Below, piece after piece: positions 4,230 to 31,641 of a stretch of 46,651 nucleotides of DNA; positions within the stretch are counted from its first letter, which is position 1, and each line of letters opens with the position of its first letter. A program made the translations under genes and the position numbers. The notes under the pieces were generated by a model, which made no database searches, was not told the origin of the DNA, and was given only the letters and a program-made list of their open reading frames with translations. Origin of the DNA: Escherichia phage vB_EcoS-733R5; sequence record ON470608.1; one strand, given 5' to 3'.

Positions 4230-6183
4230 TGATTGATATCTGACTGACAGTGCATGATCTGCCCTCTGATAAACGTCGCGGTAGGGATACCCGTTACCGG
4301 GTACCCCCCGCACAGATCCCGGCGTGCGCTATTCACGCACCGGGCTCCTGCCTTGGGTGTCTGGCGGTGAACCGCTCCACAGGCCATGGATGCAGAACCC
4401 GAACCTTCGGCAGCCATACGGCTGCCAGTCTGTTTGCTTTCGTCCATGTCGTATCATCCTGCTGGCTCCTGCGCCTCAGCGCCCGTCGCCAGAGGTCTGT
4501 TACGTATATCCTGAACTTCCGCATCATGGGATAGTTGCCCGGGACTGAGTGGTAGTTCAGGTATCCCTGAACCACTCTCCTGAGCCATTTTCCCTGTTCG
4601 GGGATTGAGTAATGCCAGCGCTTTCGTAGTCCGTCCTTGATCGCTTTCAGTGTCGCCGTCATCCTGTCCCGGCGTGTCTTTCGTATCAGCATGAACCTGC
4701 CACTACGATCTTTCCCACTGATATGCGTGAACCCGAGGAAGTTGAACGTTTCTGGTTTACCTTTTCCCCTGCTGGCGCGGTTTTCGGCTGCGAAGCGGCC
4801 GAACTCCGTCAGTCGGGTTTTCTTCGGATGTACCGTGAGTCCGAACTCCTTCAGTCTGCGCTGCATGGCTATACGAAAGCATTGAGCGTCGATTCGCTTG
4901 TCGAACCCGATGACTATGTCATCTGCGTATCTGACCATGACCACATTGCCTGTGGCATGGCGGCGTCGCCACTGATGCGCCCACAGATCGAAGACATAGT
5001 GGAGGTAGATGTTTGCCAGCAGCGGCGAGATAACCGCACCCTGTGGGGTGCCTTCCTCCGATGCCCGCCATTCTCCTTCCTCTGAGGTCCCGGCTGTGAG
5101 CCACTTTCGTATGAGCCTGATTACCCTCTGGTCGCCGATTCTGTGTTCTATGAACCTGATTAGCCATTCATGGCTTACCTTGTCGAAGAACTGACTGATA
5201 TCGGCATCCAGTACCCAGTTTACATTGGTCCGAACCAGCCCTGTGGCCAGTGCGTCCAGCGCATTGTGCTGGTTTCGCCCGGGTCTGAACCCGTATGAAA
5301 ACCCCATAAAGTCATTTTCGTAGACTGCATTCAGGATCTTAACCAGCGCATACTGGACGATTTTGTCCTCCAGTGAGGCGATGCCGAGCGGGCGCTGTTT
5401 TCCATCCGCTTTCGGGATGTAGTGCCGCCTGCCGGGCTGAGCCCTGTAACTACCCTGATGAAGCCTCCGGTGCAGATCTGCTATGTTGACCTTCAGGTTT
5501 TCGGCGTAGTCCTTCCACCTGACACCATCAACTCCGGCAGCCGCTTTCCTGCTCAGGGAGAGGAATGCGTTCTCCAGTGCCTCTGCTGTCAGGAGGTGGA
5601 ACAATGCGGTAAACCGTTCTTTCTTCCGCTGCTTCGCAGCTTCCCGCACGCGTGACAGCCTCTGTGACATACTTTCCCGGCTCTGCGTCCGGCGCATGTG
5701 TGGCTGTTCCGCGTTTCCCTTGGCCCCGCTCCTTCGCTCCACTGACTCCGCTCCTTGCGGATTGTTCGCCAGATTCGCAGCTACTATGAGCGAGTCCGAC
5801 TTCTCCTCTCCGTACATCACCGGCTTCGGCTCCTCGCCTTCCCGGTGCGGGCCATCTCCGGCACTGGCAGATGGTCAGAGGGGAGATCTCCCGGTTCCCG
5901 CGTAAAGATCGTATTGACATGCCAGGGTCTCAGACCCCGCCGGGTCCATATGGCACTCGCAGTAACGCACCCTATGATGTTGCCTTCCGTAAACAGTACA
6001 ACGTCGGCACCCGGGAATTTAATATACATTTCGTGGCTCAATGGCTGGCCTGTCAACACCCCTGTCAACGCTTCGCCCCATACCTCACGGTATACAACGC
6101 ATGACTCGGGGACCCTGTGGATTGCTGGTCCTTCAATGGTCGGGGACTTTCACCCCTTGATCTTTACCGGTCTCCCGGCGCAC
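4230..6183 (-). mobile_element. Group II intron (3' boundary approximate)
   Basis: The minus strand begins GTGCGCCGGGAGACCGG (5' consensus GUGCG) at 6183, contains the RT/maturase ORF, and has a domain-V-like hairpin with a GTAA tetraloop at about 4278..4311. Confidence 0.7.
4333..5820 (-). CDS. Group II intron-encoded reverse transcriptase/maturase (LtrA-like)
   Basis: 495 aa with RT motifs (FxGxxxGxxxSPLLANIYL, YADD active site) followed by a maturase X-like domain. Confidence 0.85.
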   Translation of the reverse strand: MMYGEEKSDSLIVAANLANNPQGAESVERRSGAKGNAEQPHMRRTQSRESMSQRLSRVREAAKQRKKERFTALFHLLTAEALENAFLSLSRKAAAGVDGVRWKDYAENLKVNIADLHRRLHQGSYRAQPGRRHYIPKADGKQRPLGIASLEDKIVQYALVKILNAVYENDFMGFSYGFRPGRNQHNALDALATGLVRTNVNWVLDADISQFFDKVSHEWLIRFIEHRIGDQRVIRLIRKWLTAGTSEEGEWRASEEGTPQGAVISPLLANIYLHYVFDLWAHQWRRRHATGNVVMVRYADDIVIGFDKRIDAQCFRIAMQRRLKEFGLTVHPKKTRLTEFGRFAAENRASRGKGKPETFNFLGFTHISGKDRSGRFMLIRKTRRDRMTATLKAIKDGLRKRWHYSIPEQGKWLRRVVQGYLNYHSVPGNYPMMRKFRIYVTDLWRRALRRRSQQDDTTWTKANRLAAVWLPKVRVLHPWPVERFTARHPRQEPGA

Positions 6184-6252
6184 ACTGTTTTTATATACAG
6201 TAGTTATCGTCGCGAGATCATTCAAGCATTTTTGCCTTCCATGGCGTCAGTG

Positions 6253-9200
6253 CTACTGGTTGTTATCCAGCCAGTATTGCATCCATGCGTCAGCCATAAT
6301 ATTGCAGGCAAAGGTATATTCTGAGAATGTCGTTGAAATTTCTGAGAAGAAATCCAGATCCCACAGCTTAATCTGCCCATTGGTATTTGACCCACCGTAC
6401 TCATCAAAAGCATCCAGCAGGCGCTCAGCTGCTTCGAGGCAGGAGTTATCACCAGAATGCAGAAGAGGGTACAGCAGGAATCCAACCGTTGTCGGCTGCC
6501 CGCGGCGCGACTCCGCGATGCAGTAGTCCACTTCCTTCAGCCCACCGTAACCCGATACAGCATTTAACGCATAGGTTTCCATGTTTAGGACCGATGCCCG
6601 TCCCGCTGCTTTGCATCCGATCAGGTAGTTGTTCCAGGCATACACCTGATAATGCAGATAGCGACGCTTCGGAACATTCTCAGTGACGTTATCGGTAATA
6701 ATGTTTTTCACCCCGGCAAAATACGTACTGGATGAAAACTGACCGTCAACCATCGTCATCGCCGTAGCGTAGCTCCCGGAGGTATCCAGACCAGCAGCAT
6801 ACGCCATCGCCCAGGAACGGAACGCAGCAGCATAGAAGTTGCTGTTTGCCGAACCGACCGTACCGAATGCTGAATAGCAGTCTGCTGCCAGATTGCCGAT
6901 GGCCACTTTCAGTTCGGTTTGTTTTGCCGTGTCACCATTCAGCACCGCGAGCTTATAGAGCCACCACAGCGGAGGGAGTACCAGGCGGGAGGCAAACTGC
7001 AGCGACTTGGAATCAGCTGCGTTTCCGAGGTGAATGTTGCCGATACTTCCGTACCACGTTGTCGCCCACGCGGAGAACTTCGCATACACCGTCTCAAACG
7101 AGCCGATTTTCAGATGCAGCATGCGCACAATATCGCCGGCAATGGTGTTGAACATCCCGTTGCCGTTGTCGGTACTTGTCGCATCCAGCGTATTCCAGGC
7201 CGCAATACCGCTAATGACATCCCCCAGACGGCTGGCCAGTTTAGCCTGGCGGACGCGTGGGTACACAGATGACAGTGAAGCGAACCCAACAACAGGATTA
7301 AGTTCGACGTTAGACAATGCCGTAGTATCAGAAATGCTCTCGTTAAGGTTCATAGTGAATGAGACAGGCCACGCCCAACCCGCAGGAGCACCAAGGGTCG
7401 TTGTGGTCGATCCATATGTTCCTGCCGTCCACCCACCATCGAAACGTACATAGGATGTGGTTACTGTCAGCCCGGCGACTGGCGGCCTGTTACCAACAGT
7501 AGACGCTTCAGCAGAATCACGAATAGTATCGCCGCCTGCGTTACGGATAGACACAGAACGCAATACTGAATTGTCAGTCCAGATCGCGTTGTACTCGTTA
7601 CGATATGCTTTGGTCGCCGTTGAGTTAAGCTGAATGCGCGTCATACATGCAAACAGGGCATTAGCTGCCAGCGCAGATTGCAGGCGAGCCACAGCATCAA
7701 TCTGTACATACCCGTTTTTGAATACCCGAGTACGGTAGGTATGTTTAATCAACCGCGCCGCAATGGCCACGTTACCGGTAAGAGCGCCATTGTAGAAGAT
7801 AGTTTCTATTTCGGTGAATACCGGACCATCACTGATAATTTTGTACGCGTAGTCCGTATAACCCGCCGCGACCGTCGACCAGGCGGTGCCGGTTACCGTC
7901 GCATACAACTGCTGACAGATATTGGTATAGGTGATGCTGTCCCGCGTCAGTTTGTACGGCAGCCAGCCTACCACGCTGTCAAAACGCACCTGAGTCCCGT
8001 CATCGGCGGTTACCAGCAGACTGGTTGCGGTTTCCCGGTTCGTTCTGGTGTAGGAGGACGCATCCTGCGGTGTCGGGTAGGCCTTCAGCAGGTATTTTTT
8101 GGACGAGTTAGCCGGGATATTATCGAGGATAAGCAAATCCCCGCTGCGCAGGGAGCCATCAGCCCAGTAACTCAGGTTACGCCCCCGGCGCGGGTTAAAG
8201 TCTCCCTCTCCCGCCCACTGGGAGGGATATACCGTTCCGTCCGCATCCGTCACCACAATACAGCGGTCAGTCGGTACCTCACCCGCCTGGAATTTGCATT
8301 TTATCGCTACAGGGCGGCTTCCTGTTGCGTAATCAGTTGTGTTTTTAACCACAACCTCATAGCGGCGATACGTCGTTAAATCGTCAGTTGTCATTTTGGG
8401 CCCGTTGAACGTACCGGTTAATGTTACGTTTCCGTCAGTCGTCAGGGTGACGGCACCGGCGGCGAGTTTAAAAAGGTTGCAGAAGGTTTTTGTTGCGGAT
8501 ACAGATGTGACCTGACTGAACACGTAGCCTGCCAGCTTATCCACCACATACTGAATAATCCCCGCAGTGGTCAGCGCATAGCCTGCTGCCGTGACGTCCG
8601 CATTCAGGACAGCCAGAATCAGCATGCCCGTTGAGGCGTTGTAGGTGATGCCCCGTGTGGTTCCCCCGGCAATCGTGGTGGGAGTGAAGGCGTCAAACAC
8701 TCCTGCGCGGTCACGAATGATGCGGGTGGTGTCAGATGGCAGAGCACCGGGCAGCGTGACCGGGATGTTCATCGTCGTGCGACCGGTGGTCGTGTTGATA
8801 CCCAGGCCGTTGATACCCGCTGGCTGCAGCACAAAATCGACATACGGCGTTGTCAGGACGGCGCCGGCGGTAGATTCGCCTTCCAGCAGAGCTATGCTCT
8901 GTGAAGTACCAAGTCCGTCGGTCATCGTCATGACCAGGCGGCGCACGTTCGTGGAAAGGGACAGCTTATTCAGCGTGAAAATACTGCCGCCGCTCATCGT
9001 GGCACTGTAAGCCACCTGTGACCCATAGTTACCTACGGAGCCGATATTGGTCTGGTAGTCCCGGAGTTCGAGATTCAGCGCCCGCAACCTGTCAGCGGCA
9101 TACGCCTGAGCATTTGCAGCAATATTCACGGCATTGGCGTTTGACTGCATTTTCCCAACATCAAGAGACAGTTTTTTTGTCACCTGAATAGTCGCCGTAC

Positions 9201-10365: not shown

Positions 10366-13300
10366 TTAAGCGACGTCGCCGGGGTATGTGGCGTCGTCGT
10401 ACTGGTAGAACGATTCGAGGTATTCTTTAGCGGTGACCTGACAGGTTCCGTCAGACTGCGGGGCGATCTCCTCTACAATGGCGTCGTAGACATGGCGCGT
10501 TGAGCCGCAGAACACCAGGCGGATCGGCTCAATGGTTGCCGACGACAGGTCAACCTTCATCGGATCATCAAACTCACTCAGGTGCGGGACTGACAGCTGA
10601 AAATCACCCACCCTGCTTGCCACCATCAGCCCGGATGCAGAGCCATCCTGATAGCGGATCAGCGCTCGAGGGTTTTCGAAAGACCAGTCCAGCGGCTCCG
10701 TAACGGTGAACGTTGTCACGCCACCAGCCGTTGTCATCGCCTCCACCAGACAGGAAATCGTGTTGTTACCCGGAATATCATCCGTGAGCACAATGCGATC
10801 GCCCGTGTTGTAGCACAGCGCGTCCAGCTCTGTAGTGGCCTGGAACGTCACCCGCTGCAGCAGGTATTTCATCAGGCGACGCATGCCGATCTGATAGGCG
10901 TGGTCCTGATTGAGTACCCCATCGAGTTTATAATTCTCGATCTTCACTGGCGTCGGATTGTCCGGCGTCCGGCATTTAACGGTCTCCTCTGCCCAGGTAG
11001 TCCCGTTGATGTACGTCACGTCGACGCCATCAAAATCATCGTCGGACGGTACGGTAAATCCGCTCTGCAGCTCCTCCACCATCTCATGCGGAGTGATCAT
11101 GCCAGTCCAGGGCTTAATCCCCTCACGGTTGACCGTCGCCAGGCCATCACTCAGCAGAAAACGTGACTTCCCGGCATTGGCTATCTTCTGCAGCATTTCC
11201 AGCGCTGAGATACTGTCGCCCGTGGCGAAATCGAAATTTTCGCCCCGTGGCGTCCAGTACGCGGATTCCAGCGCGTTGATGGTGTCGACGTCCATCTCCA
11301 GCCCCAGCGAGTTCCCGACATGCAGCAGCGCCCCCGAAATGGTTCTGGCGGTTCCTGAGTCATAGGCGCGCGTGGCCACAACGTTTACGCGGCGGTCCGA
11401 CTGCGCCGCCAATTTGCCCCCCGTCTCAACGGTCACCGCCATCAGCGACACGCCGGGATAGGATGAAGGGCGCGTCAGCAGTCGCCCGCGCAGTGCCTGC
11501 CAGTACATCGTATCTCTGGCATTATCCTGCCCCTGTTCATTTTTCCGGCGACACCGGACCTCAACGAGGCCTGGTGAAGGCAGAGTGATACGCTCAGTAA
11601 ATCCAAGTCCGTTAATATTTTTTAACTTGTAAAATCCGTCGCGCGTTTCCCATCCTCCCCCTGAGCCGTAAATACGGTATTGAATTACCCAGCCAACCCA
11701 CCACGCTTCTTTCTTGCCCTTCTTGTTGAATCCACAGATACCACTCGGGAAAGAGAAATTTACTTCGAAAGCGTCAATCTTTTCGTTCTCAGGGCAGGCA
11801 AGAAATGGTCCCATCCAGGTATCATTATCGTTTATCCCGGTAGCCTCATAGTCGATCATCGTCCTGGCTATGAATCCCGGCCATGACTCATCAATAACAC
11901 CGTTAACCAGACGCGCCACCGTTGCCGTCGCGCCGTCGGCAGAGGCGATCTGGTATTCATTGCCTCGGTGGGCAAGTGAAAGCCGCTGCACCCCCTCCGG
12001 CATCCCGGAGAATGCGGTGCCCGTGGCGCTGTTATAGGCGAGTGTCACATTCGCCGTTACCGCCGGGCTGCCGCCAGTTGATGCCGTGCCGGAGGTGTAA
12101 ACCGGGGCATCACCGAAAACAGCTGCAGGCAGCGAAGAGGACGTGATCGCCCCACCCGCGAACGGACTGGCCGCCTCTGTTATCAGTACAGTGCCGCCGT
12201 TGTCCTGCGCAACCAGGCCGGATCCGGTGAGTTCCTCGGTGATGGCCGCCAGCAGTCCCGACATCGAGACGTAGTTAGCCACCAGCGACACCGGGTAGGT
12301 AACCCCCTGCCAGGTGATCGTGAACGCGCTGGAGCTGGTCGAAAAATCGTAGGTGGTCGGGGCCGCACTGGCCTGGACTTTTGCCGCACTCCCCCCCGTG
12401 CCGGGCACTGCAACCTGACCGGGGGTATATGACGCGATAAACAGATCGTAATCGACAGAGTTAAACCCCAGCGTCACCGGCATACCTACTACCGGCGCGA
12501 TCTCCGTCAGCAGCGGGCTTGCGATAACGCTGTATCCAGCCGCCGTGGTGATCTGGTAGTTCGCCGGGGCTTTAAGTTCGACCACGGCGCCAGCGACCCA
12601 GCTGGGCGGCAGTGCGTTATCGTTCTCGTCATTATCGTCATCATCATCCGTATCCAGCCCCGTAAACGTCACGCTCGATCCGGAGACGGTCATGCTGTCT
12701 GCGATAATGTCGTCTGCGTCCGGCGACGTCTGGGCCATATCCAGCCCGGTGCCGGATGACGTCCCGCCAACTTCGGTGGAGTTGACCCAGTTTTCGCTGC
12801 GCTCATCACCGGAAACGTCCGCGCCTGGCGGGTAATGGGTGCTGCTAAATCCAGGTAGCGTTGAAGCTGGCGTACTGCCAACCCTGATATCGCCATTGGT
12901 ATAAATCAAATCACCGACACCGAGACACAGCAGCATCTGGACGCGCATTTTCGTAGGATCGGCGGCATCAAACCGGGTAACCGGCTGCACCACATAATCA
13001 GGGTAGATACGCACCCGGCCAAATACCTCACGAATGGCATCACCGAGTTTTGCGCTGTTTGCTTTAGCGGGGTTCAGGTCGAGGCTTCGACCTGTGGATG
13101 ATGTATAGCCGCCGGCATCAATGTTACTCATCATGAACAATGAATAAGCCGCAGATGCGACGGCAATGCCCACTCCTATCCAGGCAATTGTCGCGGCCTC
13201 AAGCCCGAAAGGCACCGGATAAAGCCTGACATCACTATCAGGGCGAATCACACACTTAGCCCACTCGACTGGCGGAATTAACAGCCCCTCAACCTCAACG

Positions 13301-13434
13301 GTCAGCGGTGGGACATCCCGATCCTCGTAGCCTTCAACATTTTCCACCAGCCAGCTTCGAATGCTGGTTACACCATGCTCATGCGTTTCGAGTGGTTCAC
13401 CGGGAAGCCGGGACGGGTAAAAACGAATGGTCAT
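10366..13434 (-). CDS. Tail tip / host-specificity protein (J-like or GTA gp15-like)
   Basis: 1,022-aa ORF directly after the NlpC/P60-like tail gene and before the tail fibre; acidic DTDDDDDNDENDN linker. Confidence 0.6.
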   Translation of the reverse strand: MTIRFYPSRLPGEPLETHEHGVTSIRSWLVENVEGYEDRDVPPLTVEVEGLLIPPVEWAKCVIRPDSDVRLYPVPFGLEAATIAWIGVGIAVASAAYSLFMMSNIDAGGYTSSTGRSLDLNPAKANSAKLGDAIREVFGRVRIYPDYVVQPVTRFDAADPTKMRVQMLLCLGVGDLIYTNGDIRVGSTPASTLPGFSSTHYPPGADVSGDERSENWVNSTEVGGTSSGTGLDMAQTSPDADDIIADSMTVSGSSVTFTGLDTDDDDDNDENDNALPPSWVAGAVVELKAPANYQITTAAGYSVIASPLLTEIAPVVGMPVTLGFNSVDYDLFIASYTPGQVAVPGTGGSAAKVQASAAPTTYDFSTSSSAFTITWQGVTYPVSLVANYVSMSGLLAAITEELTGSGLVAQDNGGTVLITEAASPFAGGAITSSSLPAAVFGDAPVYTSGTASTGGSPAVTANVTLAYNSATGTAFSGMPEGVQRLSLAHRGNEYQIASADGATATVARLVNGVIDESWPGFIARTMIDYEATGINDNDTWMGPFLACPENEKIDAFEVNFSFPSGICGFNKKGKKEAWWVGWVIQYRIYGSGGGWETRDGFYKLKNINGLGFTERITLPSPGLVEVRCRRKNEQGQDNARDTMYWQALRGRLLTRPSSYPGVSLMAVTVETGGKLAAQSDRRVNVVATRAYDSGTARTISGALLHVGNSLGLEMDVDTINALESAYWTPRGENFDFATGDSISALEMLQKIANAGKSRFLLSDGLATVNREGIKPWTGMITPHEMVEELQSGFTVPSDDDFDGVDVTYINGTTWAEETVKCRTPDNPTPVKIENYKLDGVLNQDHAYQIGMRRLMKYLLQRVTFQATTELDALCYNTGDRIVLTDDIPGNNTISCLVEAMTTAGGVTTFTVTEPLDWSFENPRALIRYQDGSASGLMVASRVGDFQLSVPHLSEFDDPMKVDLSSATIEPIRLVFCGSTRHVYDAIVEEIAPQSDGTCQVTAKEYLESFYQYDDATYPGDVA

Positions 13435-13811
13435 TGCCAGAACTCCACTTTGACAAATCGCCGCTTAAACCGCGGCAACGGCAGAAAGGTGACGTTCGTT
13501 CCCGGATTGCATTCCGCCACATGCAGCAGACCATCGATACTGACCACGATCCCTACGTGGGTGACAGTCGACCCGGAATAACAGGCCACCCCGGCCCCTT
13601 CGCAGGGTTCGCAGCGCTCAAGGGTAAGCATCATCCTGCGCGCTTCCCGGTCGAGGCCGCCGTCGTCTTTGGTGACCCCTGCAAAATCGGGCCAGACGGG
13701 TAAATTCAGGTCGCGGCGTATCTCGTTCACAATGCCGAAACAGTCGAGTTGCGGGTATACGCGCCCGCCCTTCAGCCAGGTGACTGAACGGTATTTATCA
13801 GGGTTAAACAT
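13431..13811 (-). CDS. NlpC/P60-family tail-associated peptidase (gpK-like)
   Basis: 126 aa with a candidate Cys (DCFGIV) and His (VTHVGIV) pair; position in the tail tip module; aaggaa SD. Confidence 0.5.
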   Translation of the reverse strand: MFNPDKYRSVTWLKGGRVYPQLDCFGIVNEIRRDLNLPVWPDFAGVTKDDGGLDREARRMMLTLERCEPCEGAGVACYSGSTVTHVGIVVSIDGLLHVAECNPGTNVTFLPLPRFKRRFVKVEFWQ

Positions 13812-13820
13812 TGGGATTCC

Positions 13821-14303
13821 TTAGCTGATATAACGCAGTCCGGGGAATACAGGGAGCGTGTAGCGGTATCGCGGCCAGGCGGTATCGAGGATATTCATGT
13901 AGCCCGCAGTGATCTGCACCTCTGTCGCCGTCCAGGAGCCCGACTTGATTTTCAGCGTATACGGCACTTCCGCAGGGGCCGCTAAATCCGTGGAGATATA
14001 ACGCCGGTACGTCAGAAATGCAGACAGACGGTTAGCCAGCGCATTGCGGATCGCCGTGGACACAACACCATCGATATTGCACAGGGCAAATTTGAGGTCC
14101 TGCGTGCCGTCCGCATTGCGCGCCGGAAGAGCAATGTCTATCGCACAGGAGGTAAACGTTACGGTATCGCCGTTCTCCGTCGTTGCCGTAATACCCTCGT
14201 AGCCCTGGCACAGATAATGGACGTCAGAACCAATGGTGATCTGCAGCGTCTCAATGATCACCTCCGGGCCGCTGCTGGCGTAGAGGCGTTTAATCTGCGT
14301 CAT
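13821..14303 (-). CDS. Minor tail protein
   Basis: 160-aa ORF in the tail tip module between the tape measure and the NlpC/P60-like gene. Confidence 0.45.
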   Translation of the reverse strand: MTQIKRLYASSGPEVIIETLQITIGSDVHYLCQGYEGITATTENGDTVTFTSCAIDIALPARNADGTQDLKFALCNIDGVVSTAIRNALANRLSAFLTYRRYISTDLAAPAEVPYTLKIKSGSWTATEVQITAGYMNILDTAWPRYRYTLPVFPGLRYIS

Positions 14304-14769
14304 GCTTCGGCCACTCCTTATTCAGGGCGATATCAAGCAACGAACTTCCGACTATCCATTCCGGGTAATGCCCCCATCCAGACGGCGGCAATGGGCGCTC
14401 CCAGAGTTCTACTGGCGCGGTATATCTCCAGTAAAATCCGCCTTCTGGCGTGGGGCCTTTATAAATATCCGTGAAACGACACACGTAATTTTTCAGCCCT
14501 ACAGGCGTTAATAACGGTATGTTGAACCACGCCGCCCCATCTGATAACTCATCCCGAAACCATGCCTCAAAAGCCTGCGCCTGGGCGTCAGAAAAAATCC
14601 AGGCCAGATCTGTTTGGGTTGGTGTCGAGGTGTAGGCACGCCGCTGCCGTCCCCGGCCAGTTACCATCTGAGTACGTTTCAGAGGAGATACAGGAGTTAA
14701 ACCAAAACCCTCTTTAAGCGGTCCAGGCAGGTATGCGGAGGGGTAATAAAGCGTTGTGGTGATAGCCAT
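14290..14769 (-). CDS. Minor tail protein (distal-tail-like)
   Basis: 159-aa ORF whose start overlaps the tape-measure stop. Confidence 0.45.
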   Translation of the reverse strand: MAITTTLYYPSAYLPGPLKEGFGLTPVSPLKRTQMVTGRGRQRRAYTSTPTQTDLAWIFSDAQAQAFEAWFRDELSDGAAWFNIPLLTPVGLKNYVCRFTDIYKGPTPEGGFYWRYTAPVELWERPLPPSGWGHYPEWIVGSSLLDIALNKEWPKHDAD

Positions 14770-17306
14770 CAGCTAATTTTCCTCCCCGAGGTAGTTTTCC
14801 CCATCAGAGCCTTATGTAAATCACCCTGACCGCTTGCGACTGAGTTAACCGCCTTCCGGTATCCCCTTTCTGCCCCCTCATCTGCAGCTTTACGGACCAG
14901 CGCCAACGTTGCATCGGAAGGGTTACCATTGATGGGGATAGTGATCTTGGGAGAATAAATAGTTCCACCACCGGTTGACTGGTTTGCTACTCGATCCAGA
15001 GTGGCATCAAGTTTGGCGCTGGTCGCTGCGGTGGTCACCCGCTCTCCTTTTTGAAGCAACCAGGTACCTGTTTCAGGAACTGCATCGATCCCATCGTGGG
15101 CCATGCCAGAAAGGGAAGCGGCAGAAATAGCAGCAACCATAGGTTCTGTTATAGCCGCTGCAGCAGCCATCGCGGCTGGAGCTAATCCCGGTCCGACAAT
15201 TGGGATTGCGGCAGTTGATGCGAAAGCAGCAAGTTGAGCCTGTAAGGCTGTAGCCTGAGCATTAGCGATCATTGAAGGAATAGCAGAGGCTTGGGCACTT
15301 TTATTAACCAGCATCTGAACACCTTGATACACGATCCATTGTGCAGCCATATCAACCAGAGCTTTTATCACTGACTTCCCGAGGTCTGAAAAAATTCCCT
15401 TTATTGCTTCACCCATTGATTCAGTACCGCTGATAACATCGTATAAATGTTCAGAAATTGAATCAGTTGCAGAACCTAATATTGATGTCATTGCATCAGC
15501 CGCTTGCTGATAATAATCACTTGAACTATCCGCGAAATCAGATAATGCGCTTGATATGCCCGACTCCCAGTCATTACGTAAACCATCAGACTCATGATAA
15601 TAATCTTCTTGAATCTGCAGGCGCTCTTCAAGTGACGATTTTAACGCATCAGTTTCAGACTCATAAAGTGACTTGGTAATATCACCAGATTGATACTGTT
15701 TTAATAAATCAGCTTGTTTATATTCAAAGTCCTGTTGAATGTTGTTTAATTCACGCATTCGGCTACGGTCTTTTAATCCCAATGATCGACCAGCCAGATC
15801 ATTGTCATACCCTTGCCTTATTATTTTATTCTGCCTATCAAGGCCAGAAACAAATTCAGCTAACTTTGCGTTTTCCTGATTTAGCCGTAACTCTTCTTTT
15901 TTTGAGTCAATGATTTTAGCCGCATACCGGAGCTGCTCTTTTTGCGCTTCTGATAATGCTTTTAAGTTACCACTGGTAATATCAAAGTTTACTTTTTCAA
16001 GCTCTGTTACTTCTGCAGTTTTTTTGCCTGTCGTCTCAATAAGTGCTGCTTGCTTTTGCAGATCAAGAAGCCTGCTTTTAAAAGCATTGTCGGTTGGATT
16101 GCTTTTTGTGGTTATTTTCTGATTTGATTCACCTTTTCCTAATTTATAATTATTATCAGTTGGCGACAATCCCATATCAGAAAGGAGTGATGATAATCCT
16201 TTGGCTCCTCTTTCGACTTCCTCTGGGGTCATACTTGACTTAATCGCCCGAAGAAATTGAAGACGTTTAGATAAAAACTCTAATTCATCCTTTTGTTCCT
16301 TACTTTGGTCACCTCGCTTGTTAAGAAACTCAATGCGCTGTGCAATGTCACTTTCATCAGCAGCATTATAATTGCCAGATACAGCACCTATCCGCGACCG
16401 TGTATAGGTAGCAATAGCCCCCAAACCACCAGCAATACGACCTACGACACCGGCAAGGCTAATAGCCTCGCCTACGAGGTCTGATAACCCCTGAAGAATA
16501 GCAGGGTCGGTGAAAACATCACGAATGTCATCTAACCCATCCTGCAATGGCGAAAGGTCCACCTTAGCCAGCCCAGAGGCAATTTCCATTTTAAGACCAC
16601 GGGCACTAGTCTCTATATCCTGAAAAAATTGATTAACCTTAACGAGGTTATCAATATCTTCTTGCGGCGGTGCGATACCAAAATCCTTTGATAACTGGAT
16701 GAACTGTTTCAGCTTCTCATTGTTATTATCAAACAACGGCAGCATTTTTGACAGGTCATTGCCCAAGCTTTCAAGAATATTTGTTTTACCTGCCTGGGAA
16801 GGTATCTTTTGTAAAGCTGAACTAATAGCCAGTAACTGCTTATCAGGGGATTGCTGGGACAGCTTCTCAGCCGAAAGTCCGAGCGTATCTAATGCCTGAG
16901 CGGCCTCACCTGATTTATTCAGTACCGCATCACCAACTTTATCATTAATGTCTTTAAATATATCTGCAATATTATCGCCGGTTAGCCCAGCTTGTTCAGC
17001 TGCATATTGCCATGCAAGTAAGTCCTGAGTGGACATTTTAAGAGATTTTGCCCAGCGGTCAGCCTCTGTTACCTGCTGTGCTGTATTTTTCACAACTGCT
17101 AAACCTGCGGCACCAATCCCTACAGCTGCAGTGGCAGCTGCTGCACCAATTGCAACAATAGAAGCACCAACTTCTTTGGCGTCTTTTTTTACTTGAGCAC
17201 TCCATTTTTGCGAGGCTCTTTCAGCCTTATCCATTCCCTGAACAAATCCACCAACCTTTGCGATTAGGTCAATTGTTAATGTACCAAGGGACTTGCCAGC
17301 CATCAT
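14769..17306 (-). CDS. Tail tape measure protein
   Basis: 845 aa, Ala/Gln/Lys-rich with predicted coiled-coil and Gly-rich hydrophobic stretches; follows the G/GT chaperone genes. Confidence 0.8.
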   Translation of the reverse strand: MMAGKSLGTLTIDLIAKVGGFVQGMDKAERASQKWSAQVKKDAKEVGASIVAIGAAAATAAVGIGAAGLAVVKNTAQQVTEADRWAKSLKMSTQDLLAWQYAAEQAGLTGDNIADIFKDINDKVGDAVLNKSGEAAQALDTLGLSAEKLSQQSPDKQLLAISSALQKIPSQAGKTNILESLGNDLSKMLPLFDNNNEKLKQFIQLSKDFGIAPPQEDIDNLVKVNQFFQDIETSARGLKMEIASGLAKVDLSPLQDGLDDIRDVFTDPAILQGLSDLVGEAISLAGVVGRIAGGLGAIATYTRSRIGAVSGNYNAADESDIAQRIEFLNKRGDQSKEQKDELEFLSKRLQFLRAIKSSMTPEEVERGAKGLSSLLSDMGLSPTDNNYKLGKGESNQKITTKSNPTDNAFKSRLLDLQKQAALIETTGKKTAEVTELEKVNFDITSGNLKALSEAQKEQLRYAAKIIDSKKEELRLNQENAKLAEFVSGLDRQNKIIRQGYDNDLAGRSLGLKDRSRMRELNNIQQDFEYKQADLLKQYQSGDITKSLYESETDALKSSLEERLQIQEDYYHESDGLRNDWESGISSALSDFADSSSDYYQQAADAMTSILGSATDSISEHLYDVISGTESMGEAIKGIFSDLGKSVIKALVDMAAQWIVYQGVQMLVNKSAQASAIPSMIANAQATALQAQLAAFASTAAIPIVGPGLAPAAMAAAAAITEPMVAAISAASLSGMAHDGIDAVPETGTWLLQKGERVTTAATSAKLDATLDRVANQSTGGGTIYSPKITIPINGNPSDATLALVRKAADEGAERGYRKAVNSVASGQGDLHKALMGKTTSGRKIS

Positions 17307-17321
17307 ATTTCTCCGAGGAAT

Positions 17322-17348
17322 AAAAAACCCGCCTAAGCGGGTTTATAT
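17322..17348. terminator. Rho-independent terminator insulating the moron (bidirectional form)
   Basis: aaaaaacccgcctaagcgggtttatattt: GC stem with flanking A/T runs, between the moron stop and the tape-measure SD. Confidence 0.6.
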
Positions 17349-17351
17349 TTA

Positions 17352-17729
17352 TCAGAACTTATTCTGTTTCGGTGGCTTGCTTATTTTGCAGTCGGAGACT
17401 TCAGAGTGAGTAGTATTACTCATCTCGCTATAAGTAGTTCTCTTCAAAACAAGTGTTGCTCTATCAACTGAATAAGTTTGCTTATATTTTGTCGAATCCT
17501 TACGCCACGTTACCTCAGATGGCCCAAATGCAGCAGGAGCTGTAAAATTTAATCCGCTTCCCATAGATGGCGACTGAAGAGATGCTGACCCATTGTTTTG
17601 GTCAAGCACAACGATAAGATCAGGTGCTCTTTCATCTAAATAAGGACAAGATAAATAAGTAATTTTTGCAGTTGCAAGACTTGAAAAGCCTATTAAAGAA
17701 ATGCACAACCCTAGTAAAAGATTCTTCAT
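17352..17729 (-). CDS. Secreted protein with signal peptide; moron inside the tail operon
   Basis: 125 aa; N-terminal MKNLLLGLCISLIGFSSLATA is signal-peptide-like; AT-rich; its own SD and a candidate promoter upstream; terminator downstream. Confidence 0.6.
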   Translation of the reverse strand: MKNLLLGLCISLIGFSSLATAKITYLSCPYLDERAPDLIVVLDQNNGSASLQSPSMGSGLNFTAPAAFGPSEVTWRKDSTKYKQTYSVDRATLVLKRTTYSEMSNTTHSEVSDCKISKPPKQNKF

Positions 17730-17787
17730 TGAGAGACCTCACAGACTCATTTCCGTTTGAGTGCCCAACAATACAATAAACCTAAGA

Positions 17788-18051
17788 CTAGACCCAACTT
17801 TTCATAGCTTCTTCCAGAGAAAGCGGCGCTTCGTTGATGTGCGGTGCAAAGTCACTAACCTTGAACGGAGGCGTGTTCTTTGCCTTATTGATGTTAGCTA
17901 GGACAGAAGCCACCAGCGAAGCCCCCCACTCGGTTCGCATTATGACATTAAGCTGACCATACTTATTACGGTACTTTACCCACACCTGAAACTCACGAAG
18001 GCTCATTCGCTCCTGAGCCTCCGCTATGGTCCGCCCACCGATGCCGTTCAT
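17788..18051 (-). CDS. Tail assembly chaperone T segment (expressed as a G-T fusion by -1 frameshift)
   Basis: ORF in the -1 frame relative to G; the frame is open back to the slippery site at 18096..18102. Confidence 0.6.
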   Translation of the reverse strand: MNGIGGRTIAEAQERMSLREFQVWVKYRNKYGQLNVIMRTEWGASLVASVLANINKAKNTPPFKVSDFAPHINEAPLSLEEAMKSWV

Positions 18052-18053
18052 GA

Positions 18054-18437
18054 CTAACTCACACCAGAACTCGTCTTCTCCTGTGAGTTCGTAGTCTTTC
18101 CCAGATCGTTGACTTCCTGGATGACGGCCAGCAAAGCAATAACGATCGGCCCATCGAGCGCGCCACGATCTGGGGTAGCAGTTCCAAGAATGTCAGCCGC
18201 GGTAAACACTGGGGCGCCGTCCTGATCGCAAATATGCGCCGCAATGCGCTCAGCAATCGGGTCCGATTTCCCGTTATACGCCAGCAGTTCAGCTTTAGTG
18301 GTGTGGTAGCCCATCGGGCGCACATAGACGGTTGCAATATGCTCTTTCCCGTCACGCCCTTTCCACTTAATTTCTTTTTCCACGGGACGCCCGGTAAAAG
18401 CACCTGTTTCTTTTAACGTATCGAGAGTAAGTTGCAT
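18054..18437 (-). CDS. Tail assembly chaperone G
   Basis: 127-aa ORF between the major tail and tape-measure genes; contains an in-frame G GGA AAG heptamer near its 3' end. Confidence 0.7.
   Translation of the reverse strand: MQLTLDTLKETGAFTGRPVEKEIKWKGRDGKEHIATVYVRPMGYHTTKAELLAYNGKSDPIAERIAAHICDQDGAPVFTAADILGTATPDRGALDGPIVIALLAVIQEVNDLGKTTNSQEKTSSGVS
18096..18102 (-). other. Programmed -1 ribosomal frameshift slippery heptamer GGGAAAG
   Basis: Minus-strand ctg gga aag in the G frame, identical to the lambda G/GT slippery sequence; the -1 frame is open through T. Confidence 0.6.
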
Positions 18438-31197: not shown

Positions 31198-31641
31198 ATG
31201 TTATTGAGATATATAGCAAATATAATAGGAAGCATTTTTTTGACATACTTGTTATTGAAGTATGTTCCTTTAATGCAACATAATGACATTCTCACATCAG
31301 CAGGGGTCATCTCTACTGTTTCAGGAATCTTGTTTGGTTTTGTGCTTGCTACTATTTCGATTTTCAGTGCAGCTAGCGCCAATTCAAATGGGGTCTTGAA
31401 AGCTTTAAAAAACAACAACATACTTCAAGGTATAGTAACTAATTTATTAGCTGCTGGAGCGACACTAATTACAGCATGCTTAATTTCACTTATTGCCATG
31501 TTTGCCAGCGAGCAATTAATTTACAATGACAAAAAAATAGAGTTCATATTCATCATTCAATCATTATCACTATTGATAGTAGCAATTATAATGTTTGGGT
31601 TTACTTGGCGTAAAATTAATTGGATTTTACCATATATTTAA
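31198..31641 (+). CDS. Cargo protein B: ~147-aa membrane protein with about four TM helices (possible RexB-like effector)
   Basis: Starts 3 nt after gene A with an aagaagg SD; four hydrophobic segments; followed by a terminator. Confidence 0.55.
   Translation: MLLRYIANIIGSIFLTYLLLKYVPLMQHNDILTSAGVISTVSGILFGFVLATISIFSAASANSNGVLKALKNNNILQGIVTNLLAAGATLITACLISLIAMFASEQLIYNDKKIEFIFIIQSLSLLIVAIIMFGFTWRKINWILPYI

Follow-up and report, generated by a model that had tools for sequence, protein, structure and literature searches.

The 46,651 nucleotides (nt) of Escherichia phage vB_EcoS-733R5 (ON470608.1), hereafter the window, carry in their tail operon a moron in the original sense of Juhala and Hendrix, an inserted gene followed by a terminator. 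Its only open reading frame (ORF), for 125 residues, occupies positions 17352-17729 of the minus strand, between the tail assembly chaperone genes and the gene of the tape measure protein (TMP), and very probably encodes an exported protein. The protein belongs to a family without earlier description, which makes it a new cargo for this position. Also new here, the chaperone/TMP slot is always filled in a common group of Klebsiella and Escherichia coli prophages, with five cargos, envelope-targeted as judged from their sequences, swapping in it, and new as well is the association of the cargo with the TMP allele. As a whole explanation, a moron cassette encoding an exported periplasmic barrel that functions in superinfection exclusion, our reading is offered with slightly less than even confidence.

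A moron cassette between chaperone and tape measure

The tail module of the window shares about 67% DNA identity with that of the HK022/mEpX2/mEp235 group. In HK022, 19 nt without any hairpin separate the stop codon of T from the start of the TMP gene, whose product is homologous to the window TMP at its N-terminus (MASKSLGTLTID against MMAGKSLGTLTID). HK022 is therefore the empty site, both for the window moron and for gene 15 of HK97, which occupies the same junction in HK97 and is followed there by an annotated terminator. We also compared the window with Klebsiella phage KpF5 and E. coli 5CRE51, which carry another gene in the slot. Results showed 95-96% identity from 17794 upward, zero identity across 17345/17353-17793, and 80-82% identity from the terminator down into the TMP gene, with the upstream recombination break falling within the last two codons of T. 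This pattern indicates that the swapped unit is the leader plus the ORF. An earlier note on this DNA, made from the sequence alone, had proposed a moron inserted between the GT chaperone and the TMP gene, and the empty site of HK022, the gene 15 slot of HK97 and the unrelated genes of the relatives bear it out.

The anatomy of the cassette is compact. The Shine-Dalgarno sequence GAGG, read from the sequence at 17740-17737 of the minus strand, stands 7 nt before the ATG, and the block TGAGGTCTC at this site shows no change in relatives of 75-81% identity. The ORF consists of 21 codons for a predicted Sec signal peptide (17667-17729, minus strand) followed by a mature part of 104 residues with its stop codon (17352-17666, minus strand), predicted to be a small beta-barrel and ending in NKF. 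The intrinsic terminator (17319-17344, minus strand) begins 7 nt past the stop codon, its hairpin (17344-17325), AAACCCGC-TTAG-GCGGGTTT, having an 8-bp G+C-rich stem and a 4-nt loop and being followed by a U-run. The hairpin folds as RNA with an energy of -18.1 kcal/mol (z = -4.5), a stability that none of 200 shuffled sequences reached; an Rfam scan returned sub-threshold matches only, all of them riding on the terminator. Directly after it come the TMP Shine-Dalgarno sequence GGAG (17314-17311) and the TMP start codon (ATG at 17306). The Shine-Dalgarno sequence of the insert and the terminator before that of the TMP gene were both part of the earlier description and were both recovered.

The insert had also been described as AT-rich. 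The ORF indeed has 38.6% GC against 51-53% in T and G and 50.2% in the whole window, but the 5' 2 kb of the TMP gene are AT-rich as well (41.8% GC; third-position GC, GC3, of 0.33 against 0.30 in the ORF), so that a low GC content is not peculiar to the insert. The TMP gene is itself a mosaic, with 53.6% GC at its 3' end and a central stretch (about 15103-15650) without a nucleotide match in close relatives.

All the tail genes of the window lie on the minus strand. The upstream neighbour of the moron is the tail assembly chaperone G (18054-18437, minus strand; PF16459, E 4.9e-31; phrog_1749) with the T segment of the G-T frameshift chaperone (17788-18051, minus strand; PF06223; phrog_337). 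A lambda-type slippery heptamer, GGGAAAG, is found at about 18102-18096, and the T frame is open from 18192. The downstream neighbour is the TMP gene (14769-17306, minus strand; phrog_2854, E 7e-301; PF09718). Two further terminator-like hairpins were seen on the minus strand of the tail operon, at 18473-18458 behind the tail tube gene and at 19013-18995 behind the tail completion gene; in HK97, terminators are annotated at the corresponding places, behind the major tail gene and the tail terminator gene. By the established biology of lambdoid phages, a late transcript antiterminated by Q would pass all three terminators, and the window encodes a Q antiterminator (PF06530, E 8e-54), which explains that the tail operon can tolerate them.

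The exported protein and its family

The N-terminus of the product reads MKNLLLGLCISLIGFSSLATA|KITYLSC, where the bar is the predicted cleavage site. It has the features of a signal peptide, with a lysine at position 2, a hydrophobic core (Kyte-Doolittle mean of up to 2.6 in an 11-residue window) and A-T-A at positions -3 to -1, after which signal peptidase I is predicted to cut. The 104-residue mature part is hydrophilic, with a grand average of hydropathy of -0.62 and an isoelectric point of 8.9. This layout is common to all 34 aligned members of the family, in agreement with the signal peptide that the earlier note had assigned to the 125-residue protein. A lipoprotein signal was not found: the only early cysteine, C9, is preceded by L-G-L and does not fit the lipobox [LVI][ASTVI][GAS]C, lies 8 residues in and is not conserved, and Pfam and NCBIfam scans of the ORF gave no match to a lipoprotein family.

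We also looked at selection on the gene. The ratio of non-synonymous to synonymous substitution (dN/dS) is 0.06 against a homologue of 89% identity (dS 0.89) and 0.08 against one of 76% identity, with 0.05-0.06 in the mature part. The moron ORF is thus a real gene under strong purifying selection. Non-synonymous change in the signal region is about twice that of the mature region, and such faster change is usual for signal peptides. These data bear on the reading of the gene, which lies inside the tail block, as a virion or tail-assembly component, or else as a non-functional ORF. Both are very improbable: a predicted cleavable signal peptide would send the protein out of the cytoplasm, where tails are assembled, relatives of the HK022 type make tails without the moron and close relatives have unrelated genes in its place, and a dN/dS of 0.06 excludes decay.

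The structure prediction that the earlier note had asked for gave a confident AlphaFold2 model, obtained with only 13 sequences as input, in which the mature protein is predicted to be a small soluble beta-barrel of nine short strands (by DSSP). The mean predicted local confidence (pLDDT) is 84.5, with most blocks of the mature domain above 90 and the signal peptide at about 50. Sequence queries of the PDB, with the single sequence and with a profile, returned noise only. A transmembrane beta-barrel is unlikely with strands of 5-8 residues and a hydrophilic mature protein. Across the 34 family sequences C28, R90, L93 and C114 are invariant, and a conserved pair of cysteines behind a signal sequence points to a periplasmic disulfide. 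Export by the Sec pathway is therefore supported in silico by the signal features, the faster-evolving N-terminus, the invariant cysteine pair and the soluble-barrel model.

In a word-indexed search of 5.8 billion proteins the product had 14 clusters of homologues (53-99% identity) in Klebsiella, Cronobacter and E. coli, plus one chimera; about 25 distant relatives, from Achromobacter, Sphingobium, Sphingomonas and metagenomes, came from a profile search of 1.84 billion cluster representatives. These distant relatives have 110-144 residues (one has 180), all with an N-terminal signal-like segment. The family motifs are YLxC right after the signal segment, LDExNGT, F(G/T/S)Pxx(V/I)TW and IDRxTL, with a C-terminal GxC...KF in most members. 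Known families gave no match: a Pfam scan of the ORF found nothing at E<=1 and that of all 34 members nothing, PHROGs and NCBIfam scans gave nothing usable, and neither a profile match nor a close structural match to the periplasmic lysozyme inhibitors MliC/PliC was found. The suggestion of the earlier note that the protein could be Cor- or Bor-like does not hold, as it has neither the Pfam match nor the lipobox, nor any similarity to HK97 gp15.

The genomic contexts of the family were examined as well. The enterobacterial homologues (53-99% identity) are all situated between T and the TMP gene. A homologue in a Sphingobium prophage (32% identity; hhalign probability 97.3%, E 2e-11) is flanked by a tail chaperone gene (PF23812, weak) and the gene of a 1,647-residue TMP (phrog_7740, E 7e-59). 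Antisense to the tail operon and convergent with the chaperone gene, this homologue must have its own promoter. At the edge of an Achromobacter prophage, another homologue has an endolysin gene (Glyco_hydro_108) close by and host genes next to it; a further distant homologue adjoins a Cro-like gene and an integrase, and small genes of the early region surround two more, in one case near RecT. None of the contexts examined for the distant relatives is a core bacterial locus. The distribution of the family is that expected for a prophage accessory gene and not for a structural gene.

We asked whether such an accessory gene could serve the host in a way unrelated to phages, as a lysogenic-conversion factor. 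The protein would then be a periplasmic barrel, ligand-binding or protective against stress, of the avidin, lipocalin or lysozyme-inhibitor type, that raises host fitness or virulence. We regard this as unlikely. All matches to such proteins are weak and generic, and none is to a Pfam family, MliC/PliC included. In addition, the family occurs in prophages of hosts as different as Klebsiella, Cronobacter, Achromobacter and Sphingobium, which argues against a virulence role specific to a host niche, and the repeated placement next to the TMP gene would be left unexplained.

Cargo exchange at the slot and its prophage setting

To describe the slot we surveyed 80 IMG/VR contigs with a T protein at least 87% identical to that of the window, in 79 of which the TMP start could be placed. 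The slot was filled in 79/79, by 481-575 nt with a single ORF on the operon strand, and five types of cargo were distinguished. Types A1 (130 residues, 22 contigs) and A2 (123 residues, 17 contigs) are related lipoproteins, type B (155 residues, 25 contigs) is a membrane protein with two hydrophobic helices, type C (125-129 residues, 8 contigs) is a lipoprotein with a BamE domain (PF04355, 28.6 bits), and type D (125 residues, 7 contigs) is the secreted protein of the window. A hairpin, a U-run and GGAG follow every cargo type, while the terminator is absent from the empty HK022 site; between types A, C and D, homology extends over the terminator and the start of the TMP gene. Among the relatives whose cargo is of a type other than D are Klebsiella phages KpF5 and KPP5665-2. 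The BamE domain of type C, seen in L029 and related loci, is above the gathering score. The lipoproteins A1 and A2 have in common the motif DPYSA...NAKNSYGGY and no family match, and the two-helix membrane cargo has no match either.

One locus (L106, 3940-4368; protein P0015; GCA_042607655.1), in a prophage of E. coli/Klebsiella type, holds a chimeric cargo gene. It begins with the first 31 residues of the secreted protein, unchanged (the signal peptide and KITYLSCPYL), and these are joined in frame to type B without its N-terminal third. This chimera is direct evidence of recombination between cargo types in the slot. The TMP downstream of it, with 582 residues, is seemingly truncated.

More distant loci of type D are collinear with the window and evenly diverged over head, tail, moron and TMP genes, with 81% identity over 10 kb in Klebsiella michiganensis, 75% in K. 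aerogenes and about 65% in Cronobacter and two metagenomic contigs. They include phages with lambda-like tail-tip genes instead of the DUF1833 type. The moron gene has therefore long been established in the slot and did not come there recently. In the K. michiganensis prophage (L021; CP085764) no TMP gene is called after the homologous moron, at 5427-7960, in spite of collinear DNA of 81% identity; a frameshift may disrupt the TMP gene there.

We then asked how the cargo relates to its two sides. For non-identical pairs of slot loci aligned with MAFFT, the 694 nt of upstream G/T were compared with the first 900 nt of the TMP gene. Pairs with different cargos reach 98.7-99.4% identity on the G/T side but no more than 86.7% over the first 900 nt of the TMP gene, the related lipoprotein types A1 and A2 being the exception to this limit. 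In particular, TMP-side identity is 96.7-100% in D-D pairs and at most 85.6% between D and other types, and type B stands at about 64% to all other types. High identity (88-93%) returns in the last 350 nt or so of the TMP gene and in the genes beyond. Results showed that the cargo type is associated with the 5' allele of the TMP gene, while T can be about 99% identical between cargo types. Recombination is thus visible at the T/cargo junction, and most of the TMP gene moves together with the cargo. Moron and TMP 5' region are also alike in low GC3.

The phage that carries the cassette is a lambdoid temperate siphovirus, with CI/Cro, O, RusA, the Q antiterminator, lysis genes and an HK97-type head-tail module. 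The window is a predicted prophage with host flanks: csc sucrose genes, a tRNA-Arg gene beside the integrase, and yfdC. Its sequence is the reverse complement of GenBank ON470622 (Escherichia phage vB_EcoS-716R3, partial genome), which is a predicted prophage, and a literature search returned no paper on phage 716R3. The 701 nt around the moron occur in 14 of 5,426 complete E. coli genomes at 99-100% identity, always in the chromosome; E. coli YJ4, M505 and strain 164 are such lysogens. A tblastn search of 50,697 phage records found no copy of the moron beyond the source record, and plasmids gave none either.

Product names in ON470622 should be read with caution. Those of its tail genes are implausible ("obscurin", "kinase", "nitrite transporter", "ArsR family regulator"), including those at window positions 13339-14303 and 10367-13435 (minus strand), and RefSeq genomes name the same tail genes DUF1833 or hypothetical tail proteins, so that the names of the record cannot be trusted. 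"Obscurin" as the name of the moron product was rejected as an annotation artefact; PGAP labels the same ORF hypothetical. Two other genes of the window were noticed. A reverse transcriptase of 494 residues (4333-5817, minus strand; PF00078, E 4e-45), labelled "retron-type" in the record and matched by generic reverse transcriptase and DRT-type PADLOC models, lies near the prophage end past the tail fibre genes and may be a defence element or a group II intron-like element. A very hydrophobic ORF of 147 residues with several predicted membrane helices (31198-31641, plus strand), directly downstream of Q and on the opposite strand, could be a further accessory position.

Expression and proposed function

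Considering these results, we propose the following mechanism. The locus would be a classical moron cassette in the chaperone/TMP slot of an HK97/HK022-like tail operon, made of a short leader with a Shine-Dalgarno sequence, one gene and an intrinsic terminator. The protein would be produced in the lysogen, and then again late in lytic growth by Q-antiterminated read-through. It would be exported by the Sec pathway, cleaved after Ala21 and folded in the periplasm into a soluble beta-barrel of about 11.5 kDa, probably stapled by a Cys28-Cys114 disulfide. There the barrel would meet the tail tip or the ejected TMP of an incoming related siphovirus, and genome entry would stop, an action that would resemble those of T4 Spackle, TP-J34 Ltp and, from this very slot, HK97 gp15. 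The data show the anatomy of the cassette, its empty site, the exchange of cargos, the features of export, purifying selection, a family confined to prophages and the association with the TMP allele, whereas we infer that the gene is expressed in the lysogen, that its product is periplasmic and has the disulfide, and that it excludes phages through the target named.

Superinfection exclusion in the periplasm is our best guess at the most likely function, argued by analogy and from the linkage; that the protein acts as an exclusion factor at genome entry is possible, and we advance it tentatively. We favour exclusion because gp15, the only characterised occupant of the slot, excludes in a tail- or TMP-dependent manner, because every alternative occupant appears to be an envelope protein, because the cargo type goes with the TMP allele, because the family recurs beside the TMP gene of an unrelated Sphingobium phage, and because excluders that are soluble and periplasmic, that target a TMP or that are swappable lipoproteins exist elsewhere.

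The closest positional precedent is HK97 gene 15, the first element to be called a moron. The prophage expresses its product, which enters the inner membrane and keeps phage genomes from being injected; a swap of tail regions between HK97 and HK022 relieves the inhibition, so that sensitivity maps to the tail region (PMC3594210). The two morons have the same slot, a homologous operon order (frameshift chaperone, moron, terminator, TMP), leaders of similar length, an AT-rich insert and a product that is, or would be, targeted to the envelope. On the contrary, the proteins are different: no BLASTP alignment was found at E<=100 and the window protein does not fall in the gp15/YebO family, gp15 being a YebO-related inner-membrane protein of 62 residues with one helix and the window product a predicted exported beta-barrel of 104. 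Moreover, exclusion is proven for gp15 and deduced for the window protein.

As a model for a soluble periplasmic excluder, the closest is T4 Spackle (Sp), which excludes phages from the periplasm by inhibiting the tail lysozyme gp5 (PMC7677548). By description, Spackle is a small, Sec-exported, soluble periplasmic phage protein, as the window protein is predicted to be, and it acts on the incoming tail tip. Unlike the window moron, it is an early gene of a virulent phage, and a Pfam scan found in the window TMP no lysozyme domain, the type of target that Spackle has. The Tab tail-assembly blocker was rejected as a comparator, as it is cytoplasmic and its gene lies between terminase genes. Lambda bor and lom are accessory genes for envelope proteins in or beside the late/tail operon of a lambdoid prophage, as is proposed for the moron. 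Their products are a lipoprotein (Bor) and an Ail-family barrel of the outer membrane (Lom). The window protein has no Pfam match to either, and its predicted strands lack the length and the apolar character that a transmembrane barrel needs.

Prophage-encoded envelope proteins that block the entry of cognate phages are also known in Ltp, T5 Llp, Cor and mEpimmI Lpp. TP-J34 Ltp targets a TMP, according to a reference cited in PMC3952083, and the Lpp lipoprotein genes of mEpimmI phages lie inside structural clusters, come in several swappable sequence types and exclude cognate phages (PMC11893012). The sister cargos of the slot are lipoproteins too, while the window protein differs from all these in having no lipobox and no family match. 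This group raises another possibility, namely that the exported protein masks a receptor by binding an outer-membrane receptor or another envelope protein used in adsorption, as Cor of phi80/N15 or T5 Llp do on FhuA, and so blocks adsorption or triggering instead of TMP-dependent genome entry. The predicted envelope location and the lipoprotein cargos of the slot agree with it, as do the mEpimmI lipoproteins, which exclude phages by the receptor they use (PMC11893012), and the precedents of Cor and Llp (PMC3594210; PMC9586334). We nonetheless give receptor masking a low probability: a protein that is no lipoprotein and has no membrane anchor has no obvious route to the outer membrane, it shows no similarity to the Cor or Bor families in Pfam, and the cargo type tracks the TMP allele, in a comparison that covered the G/T and the TMP sides of the cargo. 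We keep exclusion at genome entry as the preferred function.

Expression in the lysogen requires a closer look at the promoter. The earlier note had pointed to a candidate promoter overlapping the end of T, and the hexamers are where it placed them: TTGGGT at 17797-17792 and TATTGT at 17773-17768, with an 18-nt spacer (17768-17797, minus strand). The site is the best one in the upstream 100-154 nt and matches 7/12 consensus positions, and the block TTTATTGTAT is kept in the K. michiganensis locus and in L024. But its weight-matrix score of 6.3 is equalled by 29-46% of other same-strand windows, no better than chance, and a consensus promoter scan of the window did not list it, so that the site does not establish the Q-independent expression from the prophage that the earlier note had proposed.

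Several points weigh against our reading, and this promoter is the first. It is not above background either in the window phage or in its nearest relative, the K. michiganensis prophage, so that expression of the moron could be purely late. PADLOC models gave no family match for the ORF at E<=1, and the seven type D loci of IMG/VR are one close lineage. The linkage between cargo and TMP could be passive, as only 45 nt separate them and a crossover would find little homology in TMP alleles that have diverged. Nor is it uniform, since A2 adjoins TMP-side alleles that are only 81-100% identical to each other, and in pairs of A2 and of C identity is no higher on the TMP side than on that of T.

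The promoter point leads to a helper made only late, a protein without a working promoter of its own that is produced from the Q-antiterminated late transcript and acts in the periplasm during lytic growth, for example by sparing progeny from loss on debris or by modulating lysis. Besides the chance-level promoter, a gene on the operon strand with a good Shine-Dalgarno sequence, the common orientation of all five cargo types with the operon in the 79 relatives and the presence of Q are consistent with it. To place the window in context, we scored the best promoter-like site within 100 nt upstream of the ATG in 11 slot cassettes, HK97 gp15 included. The median background fraction was 0.05 and the position was consistent, with a -10 element usually ending 24-38 nt before the ATG; the window (0.29) and the K. 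michiganensis locus (0.45) were the weakest of the 11, and the other cassettes scored 7.3-11.5. Moreover, the Sphingobium homologue is antisense to the tail operon and other members adjoin regions with a repressor or an integrase. A gene with a terminator immediately behind it has the layout of an independent unit, and the HK97 prophage expresses gp15 from this slot (PMC3594210). A late-only role is thus improbable in our view, and expression from the prophage remains the preferred reading.

A broader reading can be formulated, which we consider speculative and more probably wrong than right. In it, the chaperone/TMP slot of this HK97-like prophage lineage of Klebsiella and E. coli would be an obligatory cassette-swapping locus for envelope effectors, each matched to its own TMP allele, so that the five cargos would be "exclusion groups", lock-and-key pairs of excluder and TMP. 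The window protein would be the founder of a widespread family of periplasmic beta-barrel excluders in proteobacterial prophages, and its recurrence beside the TMP gene in Sphingobium would reflect this coupling.

In conclusion, morons of the chaperone/TMP slot are textbook add-on genes of prophages, and both the arrangement and the slot were already known. To this slot the locus described here adds an unrelated cargo, soluble and predicted to be periplasmic, from an unannotated family. If the cargos were not excluders, this would be one more hypothetical gene of lysogenic conversion. If they were excluders matched to their TMP alleles, they would help to predict which temperate or therapeutic phages a lysogen resists, and they would offer a way to study the passage of tape measure proteins through the periplasm.

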